Source: an uncultured Deferribacteres bacterium (GTDB taxonomy: Bacteria; Zhuqueibacterota; Zhuqueibacteria; Zhuqueibacterales; Geothermadaptataceae). From it: a stretch of DNA of 64,000 nt. Shown here one piece after another: positions 27,955 to 51,765 of this stretch. Position numbers and translations under genes: made by a program. The notes under the pieces are model-generated. The model saw nothing but the letters and a program-made list of their open reading frames with translations, had not been told where the DNA came from and searched no databases. The stretch lies in the NCBI GenBank assembly GCA_964014485.1, contig CAXHAT010000003.1, forward strand, positions 1 through 64,000, written 5' to 3'. The first letter of the stretch is position 1. Each line of letters starts with the position of its first letter.

Positions 27955-28025
27955 CTCCTGCTCCTCTTTCTTCACATTTTTTCTTGACAAAATGATTGAA
28001 GTCAAAATGGTGGATTCAATAGTTT

Positions 28026-28202: not shown

Positions 28203-28223
28203 AGTTTATGATTTTGCCTTTAA

Positions 28224-33837: not shown

Positions 33838-35055
33838 ATGCCAAATCACGATCATTTAAAGATTTTGAAACAAGGTGTCGATGTTTGGAACCAATGGTGG
33901 AGTGATCGCTGGGCCACATTTCCCAAAGAAGATGGACGGGTTTCTAGTAAGTACATAGATTTTGACTTATCTGAAACAGATCTGTCGAATATGGACTTCG
34001 AAAATATAAATTTGAGATTTACCAATTTATCTAACTCAGATTTGAGCGATTCTGATCTTAGCTATGCGGATATTTTTTCAGCCAAATTGTCAAAAGCAAA
34101 TTTGACCCGAGCAACGCTTGTAAATTCTAATCTACGCGGATCGGATCTTAGCTATGCGAATCTAAGTTATGCTCATTTGGGTGGTGCTGACTTAGGTGGA
34201 GCAAATTTGTATATGACGGATTTATCGAATGCTCGGCTGCACAGTACCGGTTTCTGGGACGCTGATTTAACTGAAGCGAATTTTGAACACGCAATCCTGA
34301 ATTATACCAAATTCAATTATGCGAAGTTATTTCGATGCAGAAACTTAGAATCTTGTGTCCACTTGACTCCAAGTGGTATTGATCATCAAACTCTTATCAG
34401 TTCTGGTCCTCTGCCCGAAGTTTTCCTTAAAGGCTGTGGTTTGCCCCAACATTTTCTCGAGTATGTTCCTTCCCTATTTTGGGCACCCAATCCAATTGAG
34501 TTTTATTCCTGTTTCATTTCATACAACCATAGAGACAGATCCTTTGCACGTCGCCTTCATGACCAACTTCAAGCACGCGGGATACGCTGCTGGCTCGATG
34601 AGAAGAAAATGTTACCCGGAGATGATATTTACACAAAAATAGACCAAGGAATCAAACAGTATGATAAACTTCTTCTGTGTTGTTCAAAGCATTCCCTCGC
34701 CAGTTGGTGGGTTGACAATGAAATTGACACGGCTTTTGAAAAAGAACGGCAATTAATGCGAGAGCGTAAAGAGAAAATCCTATCCCTGATTCCGCTAAAT
34801 CTCGACGGTTTTTTATTTAGTAGCTGGAACTCAGGAAAAAAGCAGCAAATTCAATCCCGAGTTATCGCAGACTTTGTTGGTTGGGAATCAAATAATGCAA
34901 AATTTGATAGACAATTTGAGAAAGTTGTTAAATCTCTACGATTAGACGGTACCTACAAACGACAGGACTCAATAGTAGAACGAAGTAGCGAACAAGATGA
35001 GCGACTATGGTGGGGTTCCGCTCCTTTAGAGCCTAAGAGAACTTTCAAAAAGTGA
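33838..35055 (+). CDS. Pentapeptide-repeat protein with C-terminal TIR domain
   Basis: A(D/N)Lxx repeats; '[15 protein letters not shown]...L...GIRCWLD...S.WVDNE' with catalytic-position Glu; AT-rich. Confidence 0.9.
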
Positions 35056-36511: not shown

Positions 36512-37156
36512 ATGGCTCTCTCTACTTCCGCTGAAAACATTTTATCCCAACTCAACACGGAAAACACCAAACTTGGCGATATCAAGAAAATCGCCAGGGA
36601 AATAAAGAAAGACCACGATTTAGCCATGCAATTGTGGTCTAACGGAAATCTCTATCCGCGGTTGTTGGCGGTCCTGATTATGGACAAGAAATTACTCACG
36701 CAAGACGTCATAGATCGCTTGACTGAAGATTTGCAAATTCATGAGATGCAAGAGCGACTGCAAATTATCGACTGGCTGCTTGCAAACCAGCTAACAAAGA
36801 ACAAGAAAACGGTTGCCCTTCTGGATAGCTGGGAAAAAGCGCCGTCACCACTTCTGCGCCGTTTGTTTTGGTATTATCAAGCCCGTTTGCGCTGGACTGG
36901 CCAAACGCCGCCGGCCAACACAATTGATCTGTTAAATGCGCTGGAAACAGACATGGTCAACGCCGAACCTGAGGTGCAGTGGGCAATGAATTTTACTGCC
37001 GCGCAGATTGGGATTTTTCAATCAGAACATCGAGCGCGATGTATTGCGTTAGGAGAAAGACTTGGCCTGTACAAGGACGATCCCGTTCCCCGAGGCTGCA
37101 CGCCTGATTACCTGCCGGAATTCATTCGCGTTCAGGCGGCTAAACTGAAGTCTTAA
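36512..37156 (+). CDS. DNA alkylation repair (AlkD-like HEAT-repeat) protein
   Basis: 'KLGDIKKIA.EIKKDH.LA..LW', 'VQWAMN', 'GCTPDY.P.FI'. Confidence 0.75.
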   Translation: MALSTSAENILSQLNTENTKLGDIKKIAREIKKDHDLAMQLWSNGNLYPRLLAVLIMDKKLLTQDVIDRLTEDLQIHEMQERLQIIDWLLANQLTKNKKTVALLDSWEKAPSPLLRRLFWYYQARLRWTGQTPPANTIDLLNALETDMVNAEPEVQWAMNFTAAQIGIFQSEHRARCIALGERLGLYKDDPVPRGCTPDYLPEFIRVQAAKLKS

Positions 37157-37209
37157 CGAGTTTTCACTTGATTTACTACCGTCAACCTAATTTCGGGACG
37201 CCGAAAAAT

Positions 37210-37565
37210 CTCGTTCCCAATCTCAGGATTGGGAGCGCGATTGCACTCGAAACTCCAGTTTCGAGTGAATTCTTTGGCCCGAAACCGGAGTTTCGAGCCC
37301 GCTTCCGTTCCCAAATCTCGCTACCTGACGCTTTTTGTTCAAGCCTCTAAGACTGCTAAAAAGGGCCGGGATTGTCATGCTGGGAGAATCTATTTTGATC
37401 CAACCCTTGAACTTTTGAGCGTAATCGGCACTGGACGATAACAAAGATTTTGCTTCGCCGGCCTTTGGCTTTTCAGAATGACAAGACGGGGGCTTTCGGC
37501 GGCTCGAAAATGCAGTTTACAAAAAGTGTCAGGTAGAAAGTCCCAAACTGGAGTTTGGGAACGAG
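37210..37565. mobile_element. CTCGTTCCCAA...GGGAACGAG palindromic element interrupted by a nested MITE (37317-37540)
   Basis: Inner TIR CTACCTGAC(G/A)CTTTTTGT; flanks TCCCAAAT/TCCCAAAC. Confidence 0.65.
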
Positions 37566-37583
37566 CCGTAACTTTTATTATAC

Positions 37584-37655
37584 GAAGGGTTCAAAATCTT
37601 GAACCCCTACGACATGCTGTGTGTCGTTCTGAACGTTTTGTTTTTTGAGACAGCC
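37584..37655. repeat. GTAG-type palindromic repeat, copy 2
   Basis: Aligns by eye with 6802-6872. Confidence 0.7.
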
Positions 37656-38026
37656 CGCTTCCTTTGCTTTTCTACGAAGCACCGTTCTGGGGACATTCCA
37701 TTTTTGTAAGCCTTGCCCTGCGCCGGATTTCAGAATTGAGGCGCAAATGCGGAAAAACCCGCGAAATTTTTTTCAGAATTTTCGAATGCGGTGACTTTTG
37801 AAGTATGAGAATAGGCTCGAATGCGCAGTTTTTCATCGCCTTACTCTCTGTAAAAACAATATCTTATTTACATCTTCTCCACGGGCGTGATATCCTGACA
37901 AATCCGCAACTTTTGCTGAGATTCTCGTTTTTGGCGTCGAGGTTGCGAAAAGGCGGGCTGATCGGATGAGCGATCGTAAGTCGTGGGAATGACATCAAGG
38001 ACGAGCATCGAGGCGGCAAAGACGGT

Positions 38027-39757
38027 ATGGGAAAAGCATCAGGGAAGAACGCGCCGAAGCGCATTTTTTATATCATTTCATTTTTTGTTTTTGGCTTTTT
38101 GGCTCCGAGAAACAGCCAGGCGCAAGGGTATTATTTTTGGAACCCCGCGAATAAAAACTTGCCTTACGTTTCCGAAATCAATCCGGCCATTATCACCAAA
38201 CAGTTCACGCAAATCGCCGCCGGGGTGCGGCTTTACCATGTCGGTTTTCTCAGCGAAAATTCCTTCGCGATGAAAGAGAGCCGGGTCAATCTCAGCTTCC
38301 CGTTTCTTTTGCCCACGAGCTTGGGCATGGGTTTCGACATGCGTTATTTTGATTCCGGGCTGTTTTCTGAACTCAACGCAGCCTTCATGCTTAGTCGCGA
38401 AATTGCGCCAAAACTTTCTCTCGGCGTCAAACTGGGCTTCGAGCAGCGCGGTTTTAACACAGGCGAGTTTGTCGGTTTCGATCTCAACGATCCGCTGATC
38501 GCCAACGGAACGTCTTTTTTACGCCTCAATGCCGGAGCAGGGATGTACTGGTCGCCGGGAAATGTGGAACTCGGCGTCGGCGTCGATCACCTGAACGCCG
38601 CGAACGTCAACATTCTCGGCGCGACAACGGCAAATCTTCCGCGCGAGATTACCGGCGCGTTAGGTTATCGTCTCGGCGCTTTTACGCCGACGCTTTTGGT
38701 GCATCACGACGGCGTGCAGAGCCGGATCGGTTTCTCCATCACCGCCGCCAAAAACAAGCTCGGATCGATTCGATTGGGCTACGAAGAAAATTTGCCCATA
38801 CGTGTTGAAGCGACGTTCAACTTCACCCGAAACGACCGCTTGCAATACGGCGTGGACGTGCCGCACGGCGGAACGCGCGGTTTGACCGCCGGAACGCAGG
38901 CGCTGGATTACATCCACATTCTCGGACGCGCGCCGGAGTTGGGACAGCCGGAAATTTTATTCTCGACCAACGAAACCAAGGTCATCGAAAAGAAAATCAT
39001 TCGCAGCGTCGAAAGCGGGTTGAGCGTAAAAAACATCGCTGAATTCGATGAAGTGCTGCCCGCCTACGTTTCCACCGCGCGTCATCGCGACCCATTGCTG
39101 ATCATCGTCGCGGGCGCTTTGAGTGCGTACGAAACTGACGCTATTCGCGCACGGCGTTACCGCGATTTGCACGCGCAAGTCTCGTCGCTTTTGCAGCAAA
39201 ATCCGGGGATAAAGGTCGTGGTTCGAACGACGAGGGAAAACGTCGCCGACGCCAAGGCGATTGCCGCTTACATGGTAAGGCAGGCCCGCGTCGATCCGAG
39301 TCAGATCAAAATCGCCGGCATGGGCGCCGCAGCAGGCAAAAATTTGCGCGGATTTGCGCCCGGCAGAACGACGGTTCAGCGGCTTAAACCGGCGCTTTCG
39401 GAAGCAAGCGTCGTAATCAATCTGCGGGTCCCGGGAAAAACGCGCAAGACCAAAGGCTGGACGCTGCGCATCGCGAACGCAGACGGCGAAACGGTGAAAA
39501 CATTCTCCGGCGGCGGCAACTTGCCCGCAACGCTGAATTGGGACTGGCGCAACGACGGCGGCGCTTTGGTCGCGCCTGGAAAGTATGCAGTGACGCTTGA
39601 AGCAAAAACGATTTACGACAATAAAAGAACGGCGGAAGCAACGCCGCTGGGCGTGATTCTGGTAAAGCGGACGGTCAATCTCAAATTCCACAAAAACAAA
39701 GCGACGACGCAGACAACGCCGATTGAAACGGCCAGACGCGGCGAAGGGGTCGAATAG
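38027..39757 (+). CDS. PorP/SprF-like outer membrane barrel with C-terminal OmpA-like and FlgD-Ig-like extensions
   Basis: Signal peptide; 'NPA', amphipathic strands, 'DPL', 'NAGAG.YW', 'GV.VDHLN'; C-terminal 'WTLRI...VKTF.G...WDWRND.G..V.PGKY'. Confidence 0.65.
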   Translation: MGKASGKNAPKRIFYIISFFVFGFLAPRNSQAQGYYFWNPANKNLPYVSEINPAIITKQFTQIAAGVRLYHVGFLSENSFAMKESRVNLSFPFLLPTSLGMGFDMRYFDSGLFSELNAAFMLSREIAPKLSLGVKLGFEQRGFNTGEFVGFDLNDPLIANGTSFLRLNAGAGMYWSPGNVELGVGVDHLNAANVNILGATTANLPREITGALGYRLGAFTPTLLVHHDGVQSRIGFSITAAKNKLGSIRLGYEENLPIRVEATFNFTRNDRLQYGVDVPHGGTRGLTAGTQALDYIHILGRAPELGQPEILFSTNETKVIEKKIIRSVESGLSVKNIAEFDEVLPAYVSTARHRDPLLIIVAGALSAYETDAIRARRYRDLHAQVSSLLQQNPGIKVVVRTTRENVADAKAIAAYMVRQARVDPSQIKIAGMGAAAGKNLRGFAPGRTTVQRLKPALSEASVVINLRVPGKTRKTKGWTLRIANADGETVKTFSGGGNLPATLNWDWRNDGGALVAPGKYAVTLEAKTIYDNKRTAEATPLGVILVKRTVNLKFHKNKATTQTTPIETARRGEGVE

Positions 39758-39787
39758 ATTAAAAATCAAGTGCCCCAAATTTTCAAC

Positions 39788-39858
39788 GTCATTCCCGCGC
39801 AGGCGGGAATCCAGCAAAGCGTGCAAAATCGATAGATTCCCGCCTGCGCGGGAATGAC
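39788..39858. repeat. GTCATTCCCGC palindromic doublet, intergenic
   Basis: Inverted pair matching the in-frame copies. Confidence 0.9.
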
Positions 39859-39928
39859 AGATAATTTAACGAAAACAAGACCAAGTTACACTACAATTCA
39901 CATTCATATCGGAGTAAGGAGTCACATT

Positions 39929-40957
39929 GTGAAAGGATTTCTCAATATGTTTGACGATCCGTGGAGAGTTCGGAGATTCTGGGGCGTATTTTTGGCGGCG
40001 GCGCTGTTTTGCACGCTGACTTTTGTCAACGAGGGTTTTAGTCAGAAGAGAAGCGCCAAAGCGCAGACGGAGCAAGTCGCGAAAAACGGCAATGCGCAAG
40101 AGGCCGAAGGTACGGAGCTGACCGCTTGGAATATCATCGAAATGACCTCTTGGCTGTTCTGGCCTTTCGTCGTACTGACCGGCGCGGGAATTATGCTGAT
40201 TTCGTTTAAGAGCTTGCAAGAATATCAGCAGAAAGCGCGGGCGCAATCGCTGTTGCAAGGCAAAATCACCGTCAACGATTTGAAAGGGCTCGTGCGACAG
40301 GTTCAGGAATCAAAGCCAAACCGTGCGTCGCAATTGCTCTACGCCATGATTGCGACGTTTAACAAAACCAACAACGCCGAGCCGATTGGCGACGACGCCG
40401 AGGCGTATTTGAACACGGAACGCGAGCGCTACGAGACTTTCAATCGCGTCATGGGCTTTCTTTCCGACAGCGCGGGCGCGCTCGGGCTTCTCGGCACGGT
40501 CTGGGGAATTTTCGAAACCTTTCACGGCGGAAAATTGGACGGCCCGACAATTTTGCAAGGGATGAGCGTTTCGTTGGTGACAACGCTGGTCGGCTTGATT
40601 ATTTCATTGGCGCTCAACGCCGGAACGACGGCGGTCTTCGCGCTTTTTAACGGCCAAATTAGCTTGCTCTCAACACGTGCGGAAGAACTGCGACAGGCAT
40701 TGATGCAGCTCAAAAGCAACGGCAGCCAACAACCATCGCAGGCGCAATCTCAACCGCGTTCACGCGCCAAATCGTCGCCGAATGCATCGAACATGTCATC
40801 GGAAGAATATGCGCGACGCATGAGCGCCATGAGAGAAGGCGCTTTCAGACCTTCGGAAACAGCTCGGCGTAGAGCCTCCGAGATGGAAGAAACGATTGAG
40901 TCCGGCCGCCCTGCGTTTGAGCCCGAAACCAACGGCAGCAGTAACGGCTGGCTTTGA
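39929..40957 (+). CDS. MotA/TolQ/ExbB proton channel protein
   Basis: 'LGLLGTVWGI..TF...GMSVSLVTTLVGL'; AGGAG before GTG39929. Confidence 0.88.
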   Translation: MKGFLNMFDDPWRVRRFWGVFLAAALFCTLTFVNEGFSQKRSAKAQTEQVAKNGNAQEAEGTELTAWNIIEMTSWLFWPFVVLTGAGIMLISFKSLQEYQQKARAQSLLQGKITVNDLKGLVRQVQESKPNRASQLLYAMIATFNKTNNAEPIGDDAEAYLNTERERYETFNRVMGFLSDSAGALGLLGTVWGIFETFHGGKLDGPTILQGMSVSLVTTLVGLIISLALNAGTTAVFALFNGQISLLSTRAEELRQALMQLKSNGSQQPSQAQSQPRSRAKSSPNASNMSSEEYARRMSAMREGAFRPSETARRRASEMEETIESGRPAFEPETNGSSNGWL

Positions 40958-41130
40958 TTTGAGGCTGTTGGCGGTTGGCTTTTAGCTGTTGGCAAAATCC
41001 TCCCGGAGTGTCATTCAGGAGGAATCTATTTAGAACACGGGCGAAGAAGGCGGCCTTTTCGTTGGATTCTTGGCGAGAAAAGTACGCTCATAATAAAATT
41101 TTCTCTTTTGCACATTGATGCGAGTTAAAA

Positions 41131-42555
41131 ATGCACTTTAACTTTAAACAAAAAAGCGCGAAGCGCGTGAAAATTCCCCCTTCGAAGGGGGTTAGGGGGA
41201 TGTTCTGCGGCGGCGTTCATGAAGCGATGCGCGCAAATATTCACTCCGTTTCCCTTTCGAAGCGGCCTTCAGTTGCAGGCTTTTTAAAGAAGCCGACGCC
41301 GCACTCCGTGTCATTTCGAGCGGACGAAATGAAAAAACAATCGTTTACAAAACGGATAAAGCCCGCTTTAATGTTTGTTCTTTTCGACGATTCCAGAGCG
41401 AGAAATCTCAGCCGTTCCTTGACAAAAGCCTTGAGATTCCTCGCTTCGAACTTCAAAAGCTTTTCTTTGAGAACAATATTTTATCGTTCTCAAAAAAGCG
41501 CATTCCCAAAAAAACTTCCGCTCGGAATGACAAACCGAAATGCGGCGCGGTTGGATTCTCGTTCCAATGCTTCGCGTTGGAATGCAGTTTTCGACGCTTT
41601 GCGTCGCGTGCTTTTTGGGAAAACAAATGCGCTGGAATCAAATCCTGAGCGTCATGAATGGACGCGGAAGCGTCCGGGCTGTATTCCCACGCAAAGCCTG
41701 GGAACGAGACTCTCAAGAACCCTGCCCCAAAAAACCGCCTTCCTTTCGAAAGGAGGAACTGAGAACGCTGCTCGCCTAACGATTCAAATACTTTTTGTAT
41801 TTATCTGTTTCTGTCTAACGACAAACGCCAGCGCGCAAGCGCCGCGCGTCACGATTGAAGCGCCGGAGCTGCGGCAATTGGCGGGAGCGCGGGTTGAGTT
41901 GAATTTTCGCGCCGGGGCTTTGGATAATCCGGTTCAAAACCTCTTCGGCCTGGCGTTTGAATTGCACTATTCCGACGCGACGCACATTGTTTTTGACAAT
42001 CCGAGCGATGCGCTGGCCGGGCCTTTTTTACAGCCGGACGTTTTTACGTTCACGCGCCACGAGCCGGAAAATCGCGTGTTTTTTCTCGCGGTTAGCCGCA
42101 AACGCGGCGCGGCGGGACAAAACGGCGACGGGATTGCCTTGACGCTGCCGTTCACGATTTCCGAAAATGCGCCGCCGGGAGCGAAAATCTGCTTCACAAT
42201 CCAAAACGTGGCGGCGAATACGCCGGACGGTACGCCGCTGCAATTTGAAGCTGGCGAAACGGTATGTTTGGAAGTGATCGAGCCGGTGATCGAGGTCGTG
42301 CCGAACCCGATTACGCCGAACAACGACACCTACAACGACGAAGTCGAATTCAAGCGCGACGGCGGTTGGCCGGTAGAATTCTCGGTTCGCATCATGGATC
42401 GCACCGGACGGATCATTCGCGTTCTGGAAAACGGCGAAAATAAATGGGACGGCCGCGACAGCGCCGGACGGCTGCAATTGCCGGGCGTTTATCTCTACAC
42501 GATTCACGACGAAGGCCGCGTTGTTCAGCGCGGTTTTTTAGGGATTATTTTGTAA
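41131..42555 (+). CDS. Secreted cohesin-like protein with type B (CHU_C / gliding-motility-associated) CTD; signal peptide interrupted by an in-frame repeat mosaic
   Basis: 'NLFGLAFELHY' cohesin-like; 'PNPITPNND.YND.V.F...I.DR.G..I...WDG...GVYLY...G....I'. Confidence 0.7.
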   Translation: MHFNFKQKSAKRVKIPPSKGVRGMFCGGVHEAMRANIHSVSLSKRPSVAGFLKKPTPHSVSFRADEMKKQSFTKRIKPALMFVLFDDSRARNLSRSLTKALRFLASNFKSFSLRTIFYRSQKSAFPKKLPLGMTNRNAARLDSRSNASRWNAVFDALRRVLFGKTNALESNPERHEWTRKRPGCIPTQSLGTRLSRTLPQKTAFLSKGGTENAARLTIQILFVFICFCLTTNASAQAPRVTIEAPELRQLAGARVELNFRAGALDNPVQNLFGLAFELHYSDATHIVFDNPSDALAGPFLQPDVFTFTRHEPENRVFFLAVSRKRGAAGQNGDGIALTLPFTISENAPPGAKICFTIQNVAANTPDGTPLQFEAGETVCLEVIEPVIEVVPNPITPNNDTYNDEVEFKRDGGWPVEFSVRIMDRTGRIIRVLENGENKWDGRDSAGRLQLPGVYLYTIHDEGRVVQRGFLGIIL

Positions 42556-42573
42556 TGAGCCGTTAAATTTCAC

Positions 42574-42644
42574 GTCATTCCCGCGAAGGCGGGAATCCAG
42601 CTAGTCGCGCAGAGTTTCTGGATTCCCGCCTTCGCGGGAATGAC
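42574..42644. repeat. GTCATTCCCGC palindromic doublet, intergenic
   Basis: Inverted pair. Confidence 0.9.
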
Positions 42645-42750
42645 AAGAGTGGGCGCTTCTTATGATAAGGGACAGCCCGGCGCGATCGTATCATTTTCAA
42701 TAAATAGCCCTGAGCATCACTGAATTTTCAACCATTGCACGACATCAAAA

Positions 42751-45579
42751 ATGCTCTTCTTTGCAAAAATTCCTCGCCAAATTCGGCTGCACATTTTCGC
42801 CCTGGCTTGCGCGTTCTGCGGAATAGCAACCAATGCACAAGCGCAGAAACTGCGGCTGGATTATAACAGCATCGACGCGAGCGCATTTCCGCGCATCGTG
42901 TCGATGGTGACCGTCACCAATGATTCCGGATTTACCGTCGGAGCGCTGGACACGAGCCATTTCGTCGTGCATGAAGACGGCGTGCGCGAATATCCGATTG
43001 AAGTGGTCGAACTGGTCGATGAAAACGTGCCTGTGACGGTCGTTTTGGTTATCGACAAAAGCTCGAGCATGGACGAGTTTAACCTCATGGAAGATACGAA
43101 GGCCGCCGCGATCACTTTCGTGAACATCATGGGGCCGAACGACAAGACCGGGGTCGTTTCCTTTGCCAGTAAAATCTTCACCGAGCACGACGTTTCCGCC
43201 GACAAGCCGTCGATCATCTCCGCCATAAACGCCATTGAAGCGAAGGGCGGCACCTCGCTTTACGACGGCATTATGCGTGCGACCAACGTCATTCGCCCGC
43301 ACTTGCGTCCTGACGAAAGCGCGGCGCTGATTGTGATGACCGACGGCGAAGACAAGGAAGATTCCGAAGCGTCGTTCAACGAGGCGCTCAATGCTTCAAG
43401 GGCGCTTGGAATTCCGGTATTTACCATCACGCTATTCAAGGAAGGCGGCTTTATCGGGCGGGACATGAAAACGCTGGCGGCAGAGACTGGCGGGCTGCAT
43501 TTTCACAGCCCGACTTCGAAGGATTTGGAAGAAATCTACCGCCGTCTTTCCGCTCTTCTGAAGCACCGTTATCGCGTCAGTTACACCACGCACAATCCCG
43601 CCCGCGACGGCACGCTGCGTCTGGTGCAAATTGATGTCAACGCTTTCAATGCGACGGCGTTTGACACGGCCTATTACCGCGCGCCGCTCGATCTGGTCAC
43701 GGTTTCGCCGACGACGCAGGACATTCCGGCGCCGGATCGCAGCTTTGAGATCGAAATCGTCATTCCGCCGTTGAGCAATCCGGTTTTTGAGATGAAGGAT
43801 TTGACTTTTGTTTTGACCTACGATCCGCAATGGTTGAGCGTCCCCAATCTCGATCCTGCGCTTTTATCTGGCGCGTTGTTCGGTGCGCCAAATTCGCATG
43901 CGATTCAGTACGTCGTTGATCAGGCGCACGGCGAGATCAGGTTTACTTTGTCGAAAAATCAGATCGATGATTTAATCAGCGGGCGGGGGCAATTGGTGCG
44001 GGCGGTCTTTCAAACCTCGCCTGATCTGCCGGACAACATCCCGCTGACGTTCACGCTGCAAAATCTTGAATTGCGCAACGGCGAAGGAAACATCATTCCC
44101 TCGGAAGCGACGACGTTGACGGTGAATACTTTTGGTTACATCACAGCGGCGCTGACGACAAATCAGGAGTTGAATCCGGGGCGGGAGTTTTGTCTGTTCC
44201 TTGAGATTCCGCCGCATAGCAAGGCCGTCCCGGAAATGCGTGATTTCGCTTTTGTCGTCAAATACGATCCGTCGTTTTTGACCCTTCGTCCGGCGCAGAA
44301 CGGAGCATTTCAGCCCGGCGCATTGTTCCAGCCTAGCGGCAGTTTTTCGGCGCAATTCAACCCGGATGCTCAGGGCGGCGGCTTGCAGGGAAGCCTGACG
44401 AAAAATGAAGGCGCCGCATTGGTGCAAGGACGCGGCGAAATCGCCAAAATTACGTTCGATGTGTCGCCGGATTTGCCGGACAGTTCGCTGCTGAAATTTG
44501 AGTTCATTTCGGCGAGCGGGCACGACGGCAACGCCTGGCCGCTGCCTTTTCGCACCGAAGATTTAACGATTGTCAGCAACGGGCTGACGGTTTGGCCCGG
44601 CGACACGGATCACAACGGCGTGGTTGAATTGATCGACGTTCTACCGCTCGGCGTGCATTGGGAATTGAACGGCCCGGGCCGTCCGAACGAGCCGGATCCG
44701 ATGCTTTGGAAGGCGCAGCTCACGCAACGCTACCCGGTCAAAAAGGCCGCTCATGCAGACGCTGACGGCAGCGGCGGCGTGAACGAGCAGGACATTGTGC
44801 CGGTCGGCGTCAATTGGGGGAAAACGCAGGGGCAAGCGGCGGCGAAGCCGTCTCAAAAAGGCGTACAATTGCCCTCAGGTTACCTGCTGGCCACGTTGGA
44901 AGAATCGAATGTGCAAGGCCGGGTTAACCTCAGCTTGCGCTATTTTTCAGAAAATGACGCGCCAATTTCTGGAGCGACTTTCAAACTGAATTTGCAAGGT
45001 TCCGGAGCGGCTTTTGTGCGCGCGCTCGCCGGAAACGATTGGCAAAACAACCCGCTTTTGATAGCGCGCGAATTTTCCGGCGATAAAAAAATTGGCGTCG
45101 GAGTCGTTGCATTGGCGGGGCGATCGTTGGCCAAAAAGAACGGCGAAATTGTACAAATTTCTCTGAAATCGGAGCAATCCGATCTGCTGAATAAATTGGT
45201 TTTTGAAGACGTGAATCTTGTCGCGGCGAACGGCGCTTTGATCGTTTCACGTGTTGAAAAAACGCAGGTGGCCGAAGCGATTCCGCAAACGTTTTCGCTC
45301 TCCGACGCCTATCCGAATCCGTTCAACCCGGTGACCAATTTGCGGTTTTCCTTGCCCGAAATCGCCGACGTGCGCGTCAAGATCATCGACGCATTAGGAC
45401 GGGCGGTGTTTGAGTATCGTTTAAACAATGCCTCGGCGGGCTATCATTCCTGGCAGTGGCAAGGACGAAATTCGGCGGGCGAAAACGTCGTCAGCGGCGT
45501 GTACTTCGCGTTGTTTTCGGCAAAAAGCGCGTCGGGAGAAACATGGCAGGCGATGCGAAGGATGAGCCTGGTGAAGTAA
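42751..45579 (+). CDS. VWA + cohesin-like + dockerin-like surface protein with type A CTD/FlgD-Ig
   Basis: MIDAS DKSSS / GGT / TDGED; 'WPGDTDHNG.V...D' and 'ADADGSG.V...D'; 'YPNPFNP.T..RF.LP...W.G....SGVYF...M.LVK'. Confidence 0.85.
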   Translation: MLFFAKIPRQIRLHIFALACAFCGIATNAQAQKLRLDYNSIDASAFPRIVSMVTVTNDSGFTVGALDTSHFVVHEDGVREYPIEVVELVDENVPVTVVLVIDKSSSMDEFNLMEDTKAAAITFVNIMGPNDKTGVVSFASKIFTEHDVSADKPSIISAINAIEAKGGTSLYDGIMRATNVIRPHLRPDESAALIVMTDGEDKEDSEASFNEALNASRALGIPVFTITLFKEGGFIGRDMKTLAAETGGLHFHSPTSKDLEEIYRRLSALLKHRYRVSYTTHNPARDGTLRLVQIDVNAFNATAFDTAYYRAPLDLVTVSPTTQDIPAPDRSFEIEIVIPPLSNPVFEMKDLTFVLTYDPQWLSVPNLDPALLSGALFGAPNSHAIQYVVDQAHGEIRFTLSKNQIDDLISGRGQLVRAVFQTSPDLPDNIPLTFTLQNLELRNGEGNIIPSEATTLTVNTFGYITAALTTNQELNPGREFCLFLEIPPHSKAVPEMRDFAFVVKYDPSFLTLRPAQNGAFQPGALFQPSGSFSAQFNPDAQGGGLQGSLTKNEGAALVQGRGEIAKITFDVSPDLPDSSLLKFEFISASGHDGNAWPLPFRTEDLTIVSNGLTVWPGDTDHNGVVELIDVLPLGVHWELNGPGRPNEPDPMLWKAQLTQRYPVKKAAHADADGSGGVNEQDIVPVGVNWGKTQGQAAAKPSQKGVQLPSGYLLATLEESNVQGRVNLSLRYFSENDAPISGATFKLNLQGSGAAFVRALAGNDWQNNPLLIAREFSGDKKIGVGVVALAGRSLAKKNGEIVQISLKSEQSDLLNKLVFEDVNLVAANGALIVSRVEKTQVAEAIPQTFSLSDAYPNPFNPVTNLRFSLPEIADVRVKIIDALGRAVFEYRLNNASAGYHSWQWQGRNSAGENVVSGVYFALFSAKSASGETWQAMRRMSLVK

Positions 45580-45660
45580 TTTTCAGTAAGCAGTGATTAG
45601 TGATGAGTCATTAGAAACTAATTACAAATCACTAATGACTAATCACCGTTTGGAAAAAGG

Positions 45661-46089
45661 ATGGCAATGAGAAGAAGGAGAAAAAGCGGGGGCGGCGGAT
45701 CGTTGATGATCCGAATGATCGACGTCGTGTTCATTTTGTTGTTCGGCTTTATCGCCGTGTCGCAAATCAGCCAGGCGGAAGCGGTTGAGCCGCCGAAAAG
45801 CGAGGAAGCCATGATGAAAGCGCCTGAAGGGCCGCACATTGTGATTGTCGGCGTGCGCGGCGAGGGCGTTTACTCGGTGGAAGGCGGCGAAAAACTGTTT
45901 CGCAGGCTCGATCAGTTGCAGCGATATTTGAAGTCAGCGTCGGAAAAAGCCAAGGGCAATAACGAAGAATTCCAGGTTCGCATTCGCGCCGAATGGAACG
46001 CCAAGCTGGAAGACGCCCTGCGCGTCGCCAAGCTTTGCCGGGACTCGGAGTTTGTGAAAGGTTTTGACGTGGTGAAAGTAAAGGGATAG
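45661..46089 (+). CDS. ExbD/TolR-family protein 1
   Basis: 'MIDVVFILLFGF' TM helix with conserved Asp; 'V.IRAE'. Confidence 0.85.
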   Translation: MAMRRRRKSGGGGSLMIRMIDVVFILLFGFIAVSQISQAEAVEPPKSEEAMMKAPEGPHIVIVGVRGEGVYSVEGGEKLFRRLDQLQRYLKSASEKAKGNNEEFQVRIRAEWNAKLEDALRVAKLCRDSEFVKGFDVVKVKG

Positions 46090-46189
46090 AGTGAGAATGG
46101 ATAAATGGAATGTTGGATTGATGGAGTTTTGCAAGAAACCCAAAAATCTAACACTCCACTATTCCATGAATCCAATTTTGGGCTAAGAC

Positions 46190-46588
46190 ATGAACGACAA
46201 CAACAGACTGATGGTGCGGCTTATCGACGTGGCGCTCATCGTTTTGATGGGCTTTATCGCGATCAGCCGCTTGAAAACCGAATATATTGACCTGCCCGCC
46301 GCAGGCAATCCCGAACCGCAAAAGACTGAGATTAAGGAAGCGTCTTTGGTCATTTTCGGAGATCGCTACGAATTAAAGGAAAACGGCCGTCGGAAAACCA
46401 TGCGCGGCGTAGACGAGCTTGAGAGCGTGCTGGTCAGCAAAAACCGGCAATACGAAAACCGGGGTCAAAAACTGATGATGAACATTGAATCGCACAAGTC
46501 CGGGATCATGCAAAATCTCGTGCATGTTCTGGACATTTGCGAGCGCAACGAAATCGACAAGAGCCTGAATTATGACAAACTTCCGTGA
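46190..46588 (+). CDS. ExbD/TolR-family protein 2
   Basis: 'LIDVALIVLMGF', 'IDLP', 'LVHVLD'. Confidence 0.82.
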   Translation: MNDNNRLMVRLIDVALIVLMGFIAISRLKTEYIDLPAAGNPEPQKTEIKEASLVIFGDRYELKENGRRKTMRGVDELESVLVSKNRQYENRGQKLMMNIESHKSGIMQNLVHVLDICERNEIDKSLNYDKLP

Positions 46589-47663
46589 CTACATCAAGAA
46601 TCGCGACAATCTGAAAACAACCTCCATCGTCGCGACGCTGCTGTTTCTTTTGTTGGTTTTTATTCTAACGCAGCTTTTCGGTTTCCAGCGTGATCCCGAA
46701 GAAGAAGAAATCGTGCGCATCGAATTGCGCGAACGTCCGCCAAAGGTGCGGCCCAAGTTGAAACAGAAAAACGAGAAGCCCAAGAAGCGCAAAGCCGCCG
46801 GGCCGCCGACGAATTCAAAGCAGGCGCAGAAAAACCCCGCCAAACAGCAGGAGCAGGCCAAGCCGAAAGTGCAAACGGCGGATATTTCTTCTCTTGTGAA
46901 AAGCTTCACGCAGATGAAGGTGACGCGCACAACGACGACCATGCGGCAAACGCGGCAGGCCGAGGCGCAAGTGACGTCGATGAACACGACTTTAACAAAA
47001 TCAACGCGCAGTGACGTTTCCAGCGCCAATTTGAGCGCGCATTTGAGCAGTCGTCCGACGAATATTTCCGGCGGCCGGCGGGGCGCGCCGAGTGCGAGCC
47101 AAAGTGCGTCGGTCGCGGTTGGCGGCGGCAGCAGTCAGGCGGGAACGGTGCAAGGCGTTTCGAGCGGCTTGGCGGGCGGCGCAGGCAATGGTCGTGCGAC
47201 GCGCTCAACCGGAGGCGGCGGTGGAGGCGCATCGATTTCCATCCCCGGCGGCGCCGGAGACGGTGAAGAAGCGGCCATCGATATTCATGACCTAATCAAA
47301 TGGATGAAAGCACATCCGGGGAAAATTCCGCTGTTGGTCGGCTACGAAATGGGCCACAAGGAAGGCGCTGACTTGTCTTCGGCGGTCAACGTGACGATGA
47401 ACGGGCGCAGTTTTACCATGTTTCTCTCGTGTAATGAAAAGGAGCTTTTGCTGCGCATTTGCATGGTCGAGAACAACGAATACACGCTTTTGAAAGACGC
47501 GGGCATTAGCGAAGCCAGCAATTTTCTGACAAGCGGCGGCGTGATTCGCGAAGCTTCCGCGATTAAATCTTTGATCAGCTCCCGCAGCGCCCCGGCGGGC
47601 AAGGCGGATGCTTTTTACGATATTTTCTGGGGTTGGTGGGAAATTGAAAGAGCGAAAATGTAA
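46572..47663 (+). CDS. TonB/TolA-like single-TM protein with a long low-complexity linker and a non-canonical C-terminal domain
   Basis: N-terminal TM helix; K/P/Q-rich then S/G-rich spacer; folded C-terminal ~130 aa; overlaps exbD2. Confidence 0.55.
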   Translation: MTNFRDYIKNRDNLKTTSIVATLLFLLLVFILTQLFGFQRDPEEEEIVRIELRERPPKVRPKLKQKNEKPKKRKAAGPPTNSKQAQKNPAKQQEQAKPKVQTADISSLVKSFTQMKVTRTTTTMRQTRQAEAQVTSMNTTLTKSTRSDVSSANLSAHLSSRPTNISGGRRGAPSASQSASVAVGGGSSQAGTVQGVSSGLAGGAGNGRATRSTGGGGGGASISIPGGAGDGEEAAIDIHDLIKWMKAHPGKIPLLVGYEMGHKEGADLSSAVNVTMNGRSFTMFLSCNEKELLLRICMVENNEYTLLKDAGISEASNFLTSGGVIREASAIKSLISSRSAPAGKADAFYDIFWGWWEIERAKM

Positions 47664-47742
47664 GTAATCAGTGATGAGTCATTAGTCAATAGTTTCTAAT
47701 GACTAAAAACTAATCACTAATGACTGAAAAAAGGGTGAGATT

Positions 47743-49224
47743 ATGTGTGGAAAAGGACGTTCCGGAATCTGGGCTTGTCTGGCAATGACGGCCATTATGG
47801 GGTGCGCGTCTTCGGGCGGCAAAAAAACGGCGGCGAGAGAAACGATGCGTGCTCCGGCGGGCGTGGATCGGATGACGGCGGCAAAGGCGTTTCGCAACGC
47901 TGACAGCAACTTTGTCTCGAAGCAGCGCGAACGGCAGGCGGTGCAACAGTTGGCTGTCGGTCGCAAGCGGTACAACAAAGTTGACGAATTTTGGAAATAT
48001 CTTGACCAAAGCGTGCAGCGCGGAGCACTTTCAGGGGCGCAACAACAGGCTTTCGACCGAGAATTGGCTGCGGGCGCTGAAGCGTTGACCAAGTGGCGCG
48101 ACGCGACCAGTAACGGGCAAAATCAAAAAATGTTGAAAGCGGCCAAGGCGCAATGCTACCAGGCGCAACAGCACTTGGAAAACGCCGTTCGCCTCGATCC
48201 GTTCAATCGCGACGCGCGCGTCTTGCTAGCGATGAATTACTATGCTTTGCAGCATTATTTTGATGAAGAAAAGAACTACGAGCGCGCCGTCGAAGTCCTG
48301 GAACGCCTGGTTCGTCTCGAAAAAGGCGAGCATGAATTGTATCGTCTGCTCGGCGAAAATTACATGGCGATGAAAGTGTTCGATCAGGCTTTGATCAACT
48401 TCCGCCGAGCGCAAAATGTTGTCGTCAAGACAAGCTTTGACACGCCGCCGGATACATCGATGCTCTTTTTTTACGCCTACATGCAGGGCGACGCTTTTGC
48501 CCGCTTGCACAACGCGCCCGGCGCCGTGAAAAGCTTTCAAACGGCGAAGCGATTGGCGCGCAGCGAGCAGGAAAAAACGGACGTTGATAATTATCTCAAA
48601 TGGATCAATTGGGACGGCGGCAATATTCGTGCGTCGGAAGCCTGGGACGAAATTTTGAAGCTGGAAGGACAAAAAAGCTACGCCGCCGTGTCGAAGGCGT
48701 GCATGGGGATTATCCCGCATCTTAAAACGCGCAAAGCCAAGTTATCAGTGCATCATAAATTGGCGGTGATGGAGTTTGAATTTACAGGAAAAAAAGAAAA
48801 AGCCGTCGAGCGAATGCGCGCGCTTTACGAAGCGCTGACTCCCGAGCAAAAAGCCCAGCCGGATGAAACTGTGCAAGCCTACCTGAACGCTTACGGCGCC
48901 ATGCTTTTTAGTTTGGGCGTCGAGAGCCGCAACAAGGATGAGAAAAAAGTGGCGCTGGCATACTTTTCAAAGTCCGTTTCTTTCGACTGGGATCAAATGG
49001 CGAAGGCGTTGCGCGAAACGATCACTCTGGTTTGGAATACGCCGGAGCAGGCGATTACGTACGGCAAGAAGGCGCTTGAGGTCGGGCAGGGCGTGCTTTC
49101 AGAAGAAGAAATTTGCGAGGTTTTTTCGCTCATGGTAAAAGCGCACAAGAGCGCCGGGAAATTCGACGAAGCGCGAACCTATTTTACCAAATGGAAGGCG
49201 TGCGACGCACCGCAGACGGACTAG
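47743..49224 (+). CDS. TPR-repeat lipoprotein
   Basis: Lipobox 'AIMGC'; TPR-like helical repeats. Confidence 0.75.
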   Translation: MCGKGRSGIWACLAMTAIMGCASSGGKKTAARETMRAPAGVDRMTAAKAFRNADSNFVSKQRERQAVQQLAVGRKRYNKVDEFWKYLDQSVQRGALSGAQQQAFDRELAAGAEALTKWRDATSNGQNQKMLKAAKAQCYQAQQHLENAVRLDPFNRDARVLLAMNYYALQHYFDEEKNYERAVEVLERLVRLEKGEHELYRLLGENYMAMKVFDQALINFRRAQNVVVKTSFDTPPDTSMLFFYAYMQGDAFARLHNAPGAVKSFQTAKRLARSEQEKTDVDNYLKWINWDGGNIRASEAWDEILKLEGQKSYAAVSKACMGIIPHLKTRKAKLSVHHKLAVMEFEFTGKKEKAVERMRALYEALTPEQKAQPDETVQAYLNAYGAMLFSLGVESRNKDEKKVALAYFSKSVSFDWDQMAKALRETITLVWNTPEQAITYGKKALEVGQGVLSEEEICEVFSLMVKAHKSAGKFDEARTYFTKWKACDAPQTD

Positions 49225-49290
49225 ACTCTGGCAAATTCCAAAAAACAACATCCAAATTTCAAAATCAGGCAATAACTTTTGGAGAGCAGA

Positions 49291-49917
49291 ATGAGAAGGA
49301 TTTTTATTTCAATATTTATTGGCTTGATGGTCAGCGTCGGCGCTTTGTCGGCGCAGAATAAGGCCGTCGAGGTCGATCAGCGCGAAGTGCAGTACGCCAA
49401 AATTACTGATCAACGCTTGCTGCGCATGTTCATCGACGATTTCATGATTCCCGAGGACAATATTTCCTACATCATCGTGTACGACATCAACGGCGACGGT
49501 TTTGGACAGGGCGATTTGGCGCGGACGTTTCCGGGCGGAAAAGTTTATTTGACCACGCCAAGTGCAAAGGCGCAAAAATTCATGAACACCTGGAATTTTG
49601 GCGGCAACATCCGCTTCACGGCGCACGCCAGCGATCCGCCAGATCAGTTTGAGAATGCGCCGGATTCCGTGCGCGCTATGGGCGGCATCTTCGCGTCGTT
49701 GTTGCGCGGATTGCGCCGAAATTATAAGGGCAAGCCGATCAAAATCCATCTCGAGCAAAATCAGGACGTGGCTTCGATTGAAATTTGGGGCTATGATCCA
49801 CGCTTGATGGATTACAATCCGCCGCCGGAAAACAAAGTCCCGGAAGAAGTGCCGGTGATGAAGTTGATTTATTTGGAAAAGTCGGTGGTGGATAGTGTTT
49901 ATACTGGCAAACAGTAA
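49291..49917 (+). CDS. Secreted hypothetical protein
   Basis: Signal peptide; Dx[DN]xDG-like 'DINGDG'. Confidence 0.7.
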   Translation: MRRIFISIFIGLMVSVGALSAQNKAVEVDQREVQYAKITDQRLLRMFIDDFMIPEDNISYIIVYDINGDGFGQGDLARTFPGGKVYLTTPSAKAQKFMNTWNFGGNIRFTAHASDPPDQFENAPDSVRAMGGIFASLLRGLRRNYKGKPIKIHLEQNQDVASIEIWGYDPRLMDYNPPPENKVPEEVPVMKLIYLEKSVVDSVYTGKQ

Positions 49918-50008
49918 TTAGTAAAGAGTGATTAGATGTTAGTGATTTCTGACTACTCATCACTTTTTACTAATCACTGACTCAAAGACTTCCCCGCGTA
50001 TCCATCCG

Positions 50009-50051
50009 AAAAAAGCCTCTCCCGCTGGTTTTAGGGAGAGGCTTTATTTTT
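50009..50051. terminator. Bidirectional intrinsic terminator
   Basis: AAAAAAGCCTCTCCC-loop-GGGAGAGGCTTTATTTT between convergent genes. Confidence 0.8.
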
Positions 50052-50121
50052 AGTGAATAGTTATTAGTGATTGGTAATAGTGACGACCAAAGACTAACCA
50101 CTATTTACTAAATACTGATCA

Positions 50122-51765
50122 CTACCCCAAATTCCTGCCTGTATTGATCACGTTCACGTCATTAAAGCGTGTGGTGGCGCAGCCGTGCGAGACGGCGCTG
50201 ATTTGTCCGGGCTGACCTTTGCCGTCGAAGAACGAGCCGCCGAGACGGTAATCGCTCTCGTCACAAATGGCGGTGCAGGAATTCCAGAATTCTTGCGTGT
50301 TTGACTGGTAGGCGACGTCATCGAGCATACCGACGATTTTGCCGTCCTTTATTTCATAAAAAAGCTGCCCGCCGAACTGAAAATTGTAGCGCTGTTGGTC
50401 GATTGAGTACGAGCCGCGCCCATGAATATAAATGCCTTTCTCCACGTCCTTGATCATATCGGCCACGGAAAGTTTTTGTTTACCCGCCGCTAAAGAAACG
50501 TTCGGCATTCTTTGAAATTGCACTGAGCTCCAATCATCGGCGTAGCAGCAGCCATGAGATGCTTCTTCGCCAATAATGTGCGCCTGATCACGGATCGCCT
50601 GATAATTAACCAAAATGCCGTCCTTAACCAAATCCCAGCGTTTGCATTTCACGCCCTCGTCGTCCCAGCCGTTTGCGCCGAGGGAGCCGTGCTGCGTTTT
50701 GTCGGCAAAAAAGTTGACAATGTCGCTGCCGTATTGAAAAGATTTGGATTCCCACTTGTCCAACGTCGCGAAGCTGGTGCCTGCGTAATTGGCTTCATAA
50801 CCCAAAACGCGATCCAATTCAAGCGGGTGCCCAACAGATTCATGAATGGTCAAAAACAGGTGCGTCGGGTCGAGAACTAGATCGTATTTTCCCGGCTCAA
50901 CGGATTTCGCCTTGAGCTTTTCCTGCGCTTGTTTGGCGGCCAAAGCCGCGTCTTCCAAAATGTCGTAGTTGAGACCGTAGTGCGCGGTCACGTCGCCGCC
51001 GGTTGCGTATTTTGACGATGCTTTCGGCTCCATATATTCGTAGCCCAAGCCGATTGGCGCGCAGAAAGAATTGCGCGTCTTGAATTTGCCGGTCGATTTG
51101 TCGATGGCCGTTACAGTGAACGGACACCAAATACGATGCAGGTCTTGATCGCAGTAGGTGCCTTCGGTCGAGGCGAAATACTTTTGTTCATTCACCAGGA
51201 AAAGCTGCGAATTGACGAAATTGGCGCCGTTTTCCATTGCCATATGATTGGCTTCCAGCAGCAAATCCACTTTTTCAGAAATGGGGACTTCGAAGGCGTT
51301 TTTTTGAATCGGCGTTTTCCAGGAAACTTCGCCGTAGCCTTTTTCTTTGGCGAGTTGAACCGGTTCATCCTGGATCGTAGCGTTGGCTTTGGCGATGGCC
51401 GCCGCTTGTTTCGCCGCTTGGGCGATTCCTTCGGTCGTTACGTTATCAGTCGCGGAAAAGCCCCAGGTCCCTTTCGCAATCACGCGAACGCCAACGCCGA
51501 AAGATTCCGTATTCACAATGTTTTGGACTTTGTTTTCCCGGGTAAAAATCCGCTGGTTGAGATAGCGCCCGATTCGAACATCGGCGTAGGAAGCCCCGGC
51601 GCTGCGTGCGGCTTGAAGCGCGACGTCCGCCAACGCTTTTTTGTCGCCGGATGGTATCGGCGAAAGCGCACCGAATGCGGAGACAGGGTTGCCGTACAAT
51701 GGGATTGTGAGCATAGCGCCGCCAGCGCCAAGCCCGGCAAGCTTCATAAATTTGCGTCTTTTCAT
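50122..51765 (-). CDS. tldD: TldD/PmbA-family metalloprotease with a Tat-like signal
   Basis: 'GA.YADVR', 'G.WGF', HESVGH, 'DDEGV', 'RMPN', 'GKGQP.Q...VSHG'; MKRRKF N-terminus. Confidence 0.9.
   Translation of the reverse strand: MKRRKFMKLAGLGAGGAMLTIPLYGNPVSAFGALSPIPSGDKKALADVALQAARSAGASYADVRIGRYLNQRIFTRENKVQNIVNTESFGVGVRVIAKGTWGFSATDNVTTEGIAQAAKQAAAIAKANATIQDEPVQLAKEKGYGEVSWKTPIQKNAFEVPISEKVDLLLEANHMAMENGANFVNSQLFLVNEQKYFASTEGTYCDQDLHRIWCPFTVTAIDKSTGKFKTRNSFCAPIGLGYEYMEPKASSKYATGGDVTAHYGLNYDILEDAALAAKQAQEKLKAKSVEPGKYDLVLDPTHLFLTIHESVGHPLELDRVLGYEANYAGTSFATLDKWESKSFQYGSDIVNFFADKTQHGSLGANGWDDEGVKCKRWDLVKDGILVNYQAIRDQAHIIGEEASHGCCYADDWSSVQFQRMPNVSLAAGKQKLSVADMIKDVEKGIYIHGRGSYSIDQQRYNFQFGGQLFYEIKDGKIVGMLDDVAYQSNTQEFWNSCTAICDESDYRLGGSFFDGKGQPGQISAVSHGCATTRFNDVNVINTGRNLG

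Follow-up and report, generated by a model that had tools for sequence, protein, structure and literature searches.

A conserved operon joining a PorP/SprF-like barrel and type IX cargo to an ExbB-ExbD1-ExbD2 motor in an uncultured Zhuqueibacterota bacterium

What would a proton-driven motor do beside a surface protein and the outer-membrane barrel that probably holds it? The question is raised by an operon of an uncultured bacterium of the Zhuqueibacterota, as candidate division KSB1 is now called (PMC11683472). The operon lies in a window of 64,000 nucleotides (contig CAXHAT010000003.1 of assembly GCA_964014485.1, positions 1 to 64,000), to which all unlabelled coordinates refer. Its nine open reading frames (ORFs), g1 to g9, occupy positions 38027-49917 and are all on the + strand. 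They encode an outer-membrane barrel (g1), a motor stator protein (g2), two secreted cargo proteins (g3 and g4), two ExbD proteins (g5 and g6), a candidate transducer (g7), a tetratricopeptide repeat (TPR) lipoprotein (g8), and a further secreted protein (g9). A 12-pair hairpin with a U-run after it closes the operon (50012-50052, +; the hairpin itself at about 50012-50045); its folding energy is -23.2 kcal/mol (z = -4.5), and none of 200 shuffled sequences folds equally well. The ORF coordinates and this hairpin bear out a first-pass annotation that had described nine co-directional genes closed by one terminator. The operon is one copy of a module, conserved in the Fibrobacterota-Chlorobiota-Bacteroidota (FCB) superphylum, that supplements type IX secretion. 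This module combines the parts list of a motor system with the outer-membrane end of a type IX secretion system (T9SS), and it has the defining features of neither a Ton system nor the canonical T9SS motor. We favor, with a probability of roughly 55%, the reading that it is a dedicated accessory machine, powered by the proton-motive force (PMF), that would handle and display type B cargo on its PorP anchor.

The barrel is a divergent member of the PorP/SprF family. g1 (38027-39757, +) scores 49.1 bits against Pfam PorP_SprF (PF11751; cut-off 22.3) over residues 61-275, in agreement with its earlier description as a PorP/SprF-like barrel. Against the NCBIfam model TIGR03519 (T9SS_PorP_fam) it scores 54.2 bits, which is under the cut-off of 90.55. 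The barrel covers approximately residues 35-300 and is followed by a C-terminal extension of about 270 residues that ends in an immunoglobulin-like (Ig) domain resembling a T9SS C-terminal domain (CTD). Pfam places a FlgD_ig-like domain at residues 478-527, and the g1 family profile matches the CTD of PorU (6za2) over its last ~65 positions with E = 0.005. A search of the ESM Atlas with the extension gave OmpA and FlgD_ig leads (0.78-0.82), which are leads only, and Pfam found no OmpA domain in g1 when the extension was scanned alone at E <= 5. There is no plug domain in g1 and no TonB-box-like motif was seen; the N-terminus carries the NPA-type motif usual in the family. The genome has a fourth PorP-family gene, which lies outside the motor modules (L003:6004-8394, -, contig C185) and encodes a fusion of PorP_SprF and OmpA of 796 amino acids (OmpA 96 bits).

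The two cargo proteins carry different types of T9SS sorting domain. g3 (putatively 41773-42555, +) is a small secreted protein made up of a beta-rich domain of about 150 residues, putatively cohesin-like, and a type B CTD. It scores 36.9 bits against the Pfam type B model CHU_C (cut-off 27) and 30.2 bits against TIGR04131 of NCBIfam, below the cut-off of 35. The first-pass annotation had read g3 as cohesin plus type B CTD in an ORF of 474 amino acids. The CTD stands, the cohesin is unconfirmed, and the length is too great. No cohesin was found in g3 by Pfam at E <= 5 or by PDB profile search, and BLASTP against the cohesin modules of g4 reaches E = 0.07-0.1 only. The six orthologues that were aligned are 279-296 amino acids long and align only from about residue 216-238 of the 474-residue ORF, indicating that this ORF is over-extended and that the real g3 has about 260-290 amino acids. 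The frame is open from 41131, through a repeat-filled spacer, and this produces the false ORF. g4 (42751-45579, +) is a secreted protein with a VWA domain, two cohesins, a dockerin-like segment, and a type A CTD. Pfam gives 56.3 bits for VWA, 41.4 for Cohesin, and 35.7 for FlgD_ig. The type A CTD scores 25.6 bits with TIGR04183 (cut-off 23) and 20.8 bits with PF18962, below the cut-off of 27. The VWA, cohesin, and type A assignments made for g4 at first sight are retained, while its dockerin is weak (Dockerin_1 15.3 bits, cut-off 22.9).

The motor genes have their own place within the ExbB/TolQ/MotA superfamily. g2 (39854-40957, +) is a stator protein of this superfamily in a short form without Ig domains. 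It matches MotA_ExbB (PF01618) with 48.8 bits (gathering score 22.9), as expected for the ExbB/TolQ-family protein that it had been taken for. In NCBIfam it has no match at the equivalog level to ExbB or TolQ (tolQ 26.3 bits against 221, exbB2 21.2 against 135). Its translation probably starts at Met32 (39947), because alignment with the orthologues begins only at residue 42-46 and a palindromic repeat contains the first ATG. The structures of PomA, ExbB, MotA, and TolQ score alike, at 15.6-17.7 bits, against a profile built from 36 ExbB proteins of the module; this equal distance marks the module ExbB as a lineage of its own within the superfamily. The genome carries six ordinary ExbB genes outside the modules. 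A hidden Markov model (HMM) of the module ExbB gives 407-461 bits on the three module copies of this genome and at most 38 bits on its other MotA/ExbB genes, and no TonB-dependent receptor is present among the scanned neighbor genes. These results set the ExbB-ExbD set apart from TonB uptake loci.

The two ExbD proteins are separate orthogroups by their HMM scores, which are 156-215 bits on the own group and 58-80 on the other. ExbD1 is encoded by g5 (45661-46089, +) and ExbD2 by g6 (46190-46588, +), the latter overlapping g7 by 17 nt, and they match ExbD (PF02472) with 39.3 and 32.0 bits (cut-off 25.4). The conserved transmembrane (TM) Asp that had been seen in both is Asp21 in g5 and Asp13 in g6, and it is invariant in 67 of 67 ExbD1 relatives and 70 of 70 ExbD2 relatives. 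Every complete module locus has both proteins. The sequences point to a stator driven by protons, with an axle formed by an ExbD heterodimer. The motor would be heteromeric and of the 5:2 type, by analogy with solved relatives.

Two other MotA-like loci with long genes in the genome, L004 and L005, were considered as relatives of the module and were rejected on their neighbors. At L004:1630-5634 (-, contig C46), a MotA/ExbB-like protein of 407 amino acids lies beside a caspase (Peptidase_C14)-FGE-sulfatase protein of 916 amino acids, with an integrase nearby; this cluster may be a conflict or defense system. L005:127-12263 (-, contig C14) encodes an Hsp70-like protein, two Hsp90/HATPase-like proteins, an OmpA-domain protein, and a protein of 537 amino acids with a weak MotA_ExbB match.

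The candidate transducer, g7, is TonB-shaped in its predicted architecture yet is not a TonB. g7 (46572-47663, +) has a TM helix as inner-membrane anchor, a disordered linker of about 200 residues whose first part is K/P/E-rich and whose second part is S/T/G-rich, and a C-terminal domain, or head, of 130 amino acids that is conserved. The AlphaFold2 (AF2) model has a helix at residues 3-35 and disorder at 37-233. The head is modeled as two helices, six strands, and one helix, with pLDDT mostly about 75-92 and a dip to about 52 near residues 311-320. The first-pass annotation called g7 TonB-like; this holds for the order of TM helix, linker, and head, and no TonB C-terminal domain is recognized by sequence. 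No Pfam or NCBIfam family, TonB_C included, matches g7 at E <= 0.01. Foldseek returned nothing at E <= 0.001, the best VIA score of the head was Z 5.9 to unrelated chains, and the ESM Atlas gave it no named relative. Among the 60 relatives listed, none has a Pfam domain and each is named hypothetical protein. A g7 profile matched 302 of 1.84 billion cluster representatives at E <= 0.001, so the family is small. In the TM helix S18 is nearly invariant, and L26 and F30 are conserved. A fused form of the transducer family also occurs: residues 1135-1323, at the C-terminal end of protein P0067 (1330 amino acids), are a g7 head domain.

The last two genes encode envelope proteins. g8 (47743-49224, +) matches TPR families in Pfam, and its lipobox Cys21 is kept in at least 90% of 51 relatives, which agrees with its initial reading as a TPR lipoprotein. 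g9 (49279-49917, +) has a signal peptide, read by eye, and is always the last gene of the module. It matches no Pfam or NCBIfam family, and AF2 modeled it poorly (pLDDT 55). When g8, g9, and the C-terminal domain of g7 were co-folded, the scores were 0.56, 0.23, and 0.26 against a mark of 0.32, values that say nothing either way on binding. Elsewhere in the genome, away from the three modules, there is a single further g9-like gene (C84:29973-30758, +), which scores 124 bits with the g9 HMM.

Gene order is conserved in relatives, a point on which the first-pass annotation would stand or fall. The genome itself has two further paralogous modules, on contigs C16 and C48, each with a long PorP-like barrel, an ExbB-like protein, two ExbD, homologues of g7, TPR protein, and g9, and a cargo with CHU_C. 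Family HMMs run over the genome find exactly three copies each of g7, g8, the PorP type, and the motor. The nine genes stand in the same order in all seven orthologous loci detected with g2, at 35-66% identity. One of these loci is truncated by a contig end and carries a duplicate of g4, and in another g1 and ExbD1 are apparently split. A search with a g7 alignment gave 103 relatives, the best 80 of which led to 79 loci, and 78 external loci were counted. The count leaves out one locus on the same contig filed under two bins, as well as L006, L007, and L009-L012, which are covered by L013-L021; L008 is counted. A PorP-like gene is present in 59 of the 78, and 53 of these 59 also have a CTD-bearing gene. 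In four of the six PorP loci without a CTD gene, PorP lies at the very start of the stretch or no more than 100 bases away from it. The seven-gene core PorP-ExbB-ExbD1-ExbD2-g7-TPR-g9 is found in this order in 45 of the 78, and most of the others are cut by contig ends. CHU_C was found by Pfam on the gene adjoining PorP in each of 12 sampled loci.

The carriers are spread over several lineages. According to the record titles they include KSB1, Calditrichota/Caldithrix, Rhodothermales, Rhodothermaceae, Balneolaceae, Rhodohalobacter, and Gemmatimonadota. Further metagenome-assembled genomes are labeled Cytophagia, Bacteroidetes, Deferribacteres, or Phycisphaerae, names that are given here as filed. 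Cultured carriers appear among the titles as Rhodohalobacter sp. 8-1 and Balneolaceae ANBcel3.

Four architectures of the module can be distinguished. In Type I (20 loci, including the orthologues of the window) the order is PorP, ExbB, cargo genes, and then ExbD1 onward, and in Type II (32 loci) it is cargo, PorP, ExbB, and then ExbD1 onward. The Type II cargo is an FG-GAP/Ig/CARDB protein of about 830-1440 amino acids with CHU_C (Pfam), and a TPR protein lies upstream in 8 of 9 sampled loci. Type III (two loci and the C16 module of this genome) has the motor arm first, followed by cargo and PorP. Types I, II, and III are each represented once in the genome of the window. Type IV (five loci) consists of cargo, PorP, g7, g8, and g9, and has neither ExbB nor ExbD, suggesting that g7, g8, and g9 are tied to the barrel and that the motor may act in trans. 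In four of these five cases the same assembly yields a second module locus: two of the second loci have ExbB and both ExbD, one has ExbD1/ExbD2 at a cut contig end, and one has g7-g8-g9 only. To judge from gene content, the loci show that g7, g8, and g9 co-occur strictly with each other, with the motor, and with the PorP-cargo pair.

The genome that carries the window has other parts of the T9SS. It measures 8.4 Mb in 465 contigs and is 97% complete. The first-pass annotation had asked for a genome search for gldKLMN, sprA, and porV. SprA (693 bits) and PorV (247.9 bits; cut-off 250) were found, together with PorU (825 bits) and more than 40 matches to type A CTDs. GldL, GldM, and GldN were not detected with TIGR03513, TIGR03517, PF12081, and TIGR03523, a search that had no positive control and that divergent forms may escape. 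With the GldK model the match is confined to an FGE-sulfatase domain (78 bits against 350).

The distribution in the phylum suggests that the module is a lineage-restricted accessory. The sample consisted of 121 genomes, including this one and one unpublished genome (G092, 1/121 in each tally); 97 are of high quality. g7 is found in 44 of the 121 (40 of the 97), with between one and four copies in a genome; four families have it in nearly all their members, and it occurs in few others. SprA is found in 119 of the 121 and in all 97 of high quality. The possibility that the module is the general T9SS motor of the phylum was rejected on this difference. GldM (TIGR03517) was detected in 0 of 121 genomes, a result without positive control that is to be read as not detected rather than absent. 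The presence of SprA in nearly all genomes while GldM is undetected raises the question of the energy source of type IX secretion in the phylum, unless its motor is too divergent for the models.

The favored reading, a dedicated machine for type B cargo, builds on what has been described in Bacteroidota. Type B cargo is reported to need a cognate PorP/SprF shuttle that is encoded adjacent to it, often with PorE, and capture by the cognate barrel has been shown for SprB-SprF and Fjoh_3952-3951 (PMC12618676). In the window, g3 would exit through the SprA translocon, which is present in the genome; its cognate barrel g1 would then take it up and retain it, as SprF does with SprB. g4 would be displayed beside g3 and perhaps docked to it. 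The motor, acting through g7 with g8 and g9, would do work on the complex of g1 and cargo at the outer membrane. This work might be to pull the cargo-loaded barrel off the translocon, or to anchor, tension, or move the adhesin complex. In this arrangement g8 would be a TPR lipoprotein of the outer membrane, and g9 and the g1 extension would be periplasmic. The genomic evidence supports the earlier proposal of a hybrid PMF-driven machine for display, secretion, or motility that fits neither canonical system, and does not separate those three options.

Several observations weigh against such a machine. The C-terminal domain of g7 was matched to no TonB or TolA fold by Foldseek or VIA. A motor-binding motif, SHLS, has been described with a conserved His in the TM helix of TonB and TolA (PMC12204202). 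Across 10 aligned sequences the g7 TM helix has no such His, so the coupling of g7 to ExbB is assumed. Gemmatimonadota loci consist of ExbB-ExbD-ExbD-g7-g8 followed by a long g9, and no PorP-like gene is present on the stretches covered, which for L069 include 7 kb upstream; a motor arm can evidently exist without a barrel in cis. The long g9 proteins (L069:11714-14113, L077:5674-7827, L085:3195-5363, L088:5067-7244) have 717-799 amino acids, and their extension consists of four repeats with an EF-hand-like DxDxSGxID motif and conserved Cys residues. On account of these repeats the idea that the long g9 is a fused barrel was rejected. Some module ExbB proteins have a long form of about 410-690 amino acids (for example L001:4278-5882, L002:9678-11348, L051:6664-8748, and L075:7082-8653), with Big_1/invasin-type Ig domains after TM3. 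No further hydrophobic segment follows TM3, so these Ig domains are predicted to be cytoplasmic, and the proposed machine gives no explanation for them. Finally, the signal peptide of g3 has no ATG, GTG, or TTG immediately upstream.

A bolder proposal goes beyond an accessory machine. The module may be a second proton-driven engine of type IX systems, independent of GldLM, in which ExbB5-ExbD1-ExbD2 would pull or move individual PorP-anchored adhesins through g7, which would be a novel type of transducer spanning the periplasm. We regard this as unlikely. If true, it would mean an independent or ancestral coupling of membrane energy to surface adhesins, and a new adhesion or motility machine. 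Another possibility, which is quite doubtful, is a gliding or pulling engine in which the motor would move the PorP-adhesin complex laterally or in cycles along the surface, much as Agl-Glt moves CglB in Myxococcus or GldLM moves SprB in Flavobacterium. The cargo is adhesin-like, with VWA and cohesin in g4 and with FG-GAP, Ig, and CARDB in the common form; the absence of GldM matches across the phylum sample is in keeping with such an engine, and the parts list equals the core complex described for Agl-Glt (PMC3169522). However, the likeness to Agl/Glt is one of architecture only, and the operon has no cytoskeletal or track component such as MglA, an MreB-linked gene, or a GldJ-like gene. Gliding is not known for these uncultured lineages. 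A genome can have as many as four copies, and every copy has a cargo of its own, which fits cargo-specific handling better than one engine for locomotion.

A structural role similar to that of Tol-Pal, with no part in transport, is an improbable alternative. In such a tether, the motor and g7 would stabilize or reposition an anchor between outer membrane and peptidoglycan, formed by the g1 extension and g8, that holds a heavy adhesin complex. The PorP-OmpA fusion encoded by the fourth PorP-family gene is consistent with a tether, and so are the ESM Atlas leads to OmpA and Ig domains on the g1 extension, as leads only. PorE, the partner of PorP in Bacteroidota, has been read as a CpoB-TolB-Pal fusion, and g8 is a TPR lipoprotein as is inferred for CpoB outside the proteobacteria (PMC12204202). 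However, Pfam detects no OmpA domain in g1 at E <= 5, and the operon has no TolB- or Pal-like gene. The module is also missing from 77 of the 121 genomes of the phylum, which argues against a housekeeping system of the envelope.

An ExbB-ExbD-ExbD-TonB series followed by a TPR gene is the usual form of a Ton operon in the FCB superphylum, and this gene order is in favor of Ton-type uptake. Uptake of this kind, in which ExbB, the ExbD proteins, and a divergent TonB would energize import through g1 while the CTD proteins bind the substrate, also finds a parallel in the Fibrobacter succinogenes cluster FSU_2400-2403, which lies beside TPR and OmpA genes and is reported to be up on cellulose (PMC6851124), but it is very improbable given a PorP/SprF barrel with neither plug nor visible TonB-box-like motif, a g7 without TonB_C, motor scores far from those of the six ordinary ExbB genes, and scanned neighborhoods without a TonB-dependent receptor.

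Each half of the module resembles a known system. The closest counterparts of the outer-membrane half are the Bacteroidota operons of type B cargo and PorP/SprF, in some cases with PorE (SprB-SprF, Fjoh_3952-3951-3950), which have been described with a CHU_C cargo, adhesin-like as in the module, beside a PorP/SprF barrel (PMC12618676, PMC9143113). The genome of the window likewise has SprA, PorU, and PorV. In contrast to these operons, g1 is about twice as long and has a periplasmic extension, and the barrel of the module has its own ExbB-ExbD1-ExbD2, a protein of TM helix, linker, and head, a TPR lipoprotein, and g9. There is no PorE gene in the module, and GldL, GldM, and GldN are undetected. 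PorE itself has been proposed to use a transducer of the TolA/TonB kind (PMC12204202). The Ton and Tol systems (ExbB-ExbD-TonB, TolQ-TolR-TolA) share with the module the stator families, the transmembrane Asp, and a third protein with an N-terminal TM helix, a Pro/Lys-rich linker, and a head. They differ from it in that the module has two distinct ExbD, that the head of g7 gave no match to TonB_C or to a TolA fold and its TM helix lacks the His, and that its partner is a PorP barrel and not a plugged receptor or Pal.

The motor half has further parallels in other surface machines. The Agl-Glt system of Myxococcus xanthus (AglR, AglQ, AglS, GltG, GltD/E/C) is described as having one TolQ-like and two TolR-like proteins, a TM Pro-rich transducer, and TPR proteins, as in the module (PMC3169522). 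It also has a surface VWA adhesin (PMC9946355), as the module has g4. In contrast, the outer part of the module is a T9SS PorP barrel with CTD cargo and not GltA/B/H/K with CglB, and the module has no cytoplasmic Glt-like components. An NCBIfam scan of the operon proteins gave no match to an Agl or Glt family. The resemblance to Agl-Glt that was pointed out at the outset is one of architecture. Transducers with a TM helix, a linker, and a globular domain other than that of TonB are reported to occur beside TPR-tolQ-tolR-tolR genes (PMC12204202). The TM-linker-vWA force transducers of Williams-Jones et al. (2025) follow the same logic as the module, with TPR, a TolQ-like and two unlike TolR-like proteins, and a TonB-shaped protein with a non-TonB head (PMC12204202). 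In the module the head of g7 is a different alpha/beta domain of 130 amino acids, the VWA domain is on the secreted cargo g4, and g7 lacks the SHLS His reported in that account (PMC12204202). In Fibrobacter succinogenes, the cluster FSU_2396-2403 (OmpA, TPR, TPR, ExbB, ExbD, ExbD, TonB family) is up on cellulose; it is a motor-transducer set of an FCB organism beside envelope proteins and has been linked to a surface adhesion complex, in parallel with the module (PMC6851124). Neither a PorP-like barrel nor CTD cargo is reported there, and the comparison is by description (PMC6851124). No published description of the operon itself was found in the full-text literature, a search that did not extend to subscription journals and supplements.

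Dispersed repeats lie in the spacers of the operon, and its flanking genes are unrelated to the module. A palindromic repeat of 74 nt, REP- or MITE-like, lies between g1 and g2 (39786-39859), with a second copy between g3 and g4 (42572-42645); it has 55 matches of at least 30 nt across 47 contigs of the genome. A similar short palindromic element upstream of the operon (37229-37314) has 55 matches across 49 contigs. The spacer before g3 (40958-41772, about 800 bp), through which the over-long g3 ORF reads, also consists largely of dispersed repeats and has no counterpart in orthologous loci; its subregion 41131-41770 (640 bp) gives 40 matches of at least 30 nt on 30 contigs. A/T-rich repeats of TAATCACT/AGTGATTA-like words are found in the spacers 45578-45646, 47663-47731, and 49913-49979 and after the terminator at about 50040-50120. 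A sigma-54 promoter was considered and rejected: the window has 22 matches where 34.5 are expected by chance, and the sole match upstream of g1 (37230-37245, two mismatches) sits inside a dispersed repeat. An Rfam scan of 37000-50300 gave no match. Upstream of the operon are a nonribosomal peptide synthetase (NRPS) module, a carbamoyltransferase, a TIR-pentapeptide protein, an AHSA1-like protein, and a DNA-alkylation-repair protein. Downstream is a convergent TldD/PmbA gene, and an A-run upstream of the hairpin suggests that the terminator could be bidirectional and serve this gene too. In the stretch 18583-30956 (-), an ORF of 3140 amino acids lies beside the NRPS module, which has condensation, AMP-binding, and PP-binding domains, and the carbamoyltransferase; the region is probably a biosynthetic cluster. 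The pentapeptide-repeat-TIR protein (33838-35055, +) adjoins the NRPS region.

The module bears on what becomes of type B cargo after its capture and on whether energy is spent there. That such cargo needs its own PorP/SprF barrel is known. Across several FCB lineages, two of them with cultured isolates, the genes for a dedicated proton motor and for an unnamed family of candidate transducers are tightly linked to such pairs of cargo and barrel. Overall the module provides a testable hypothesis, that force may be applied to individual surface adhesins through the barrel that anchors them.

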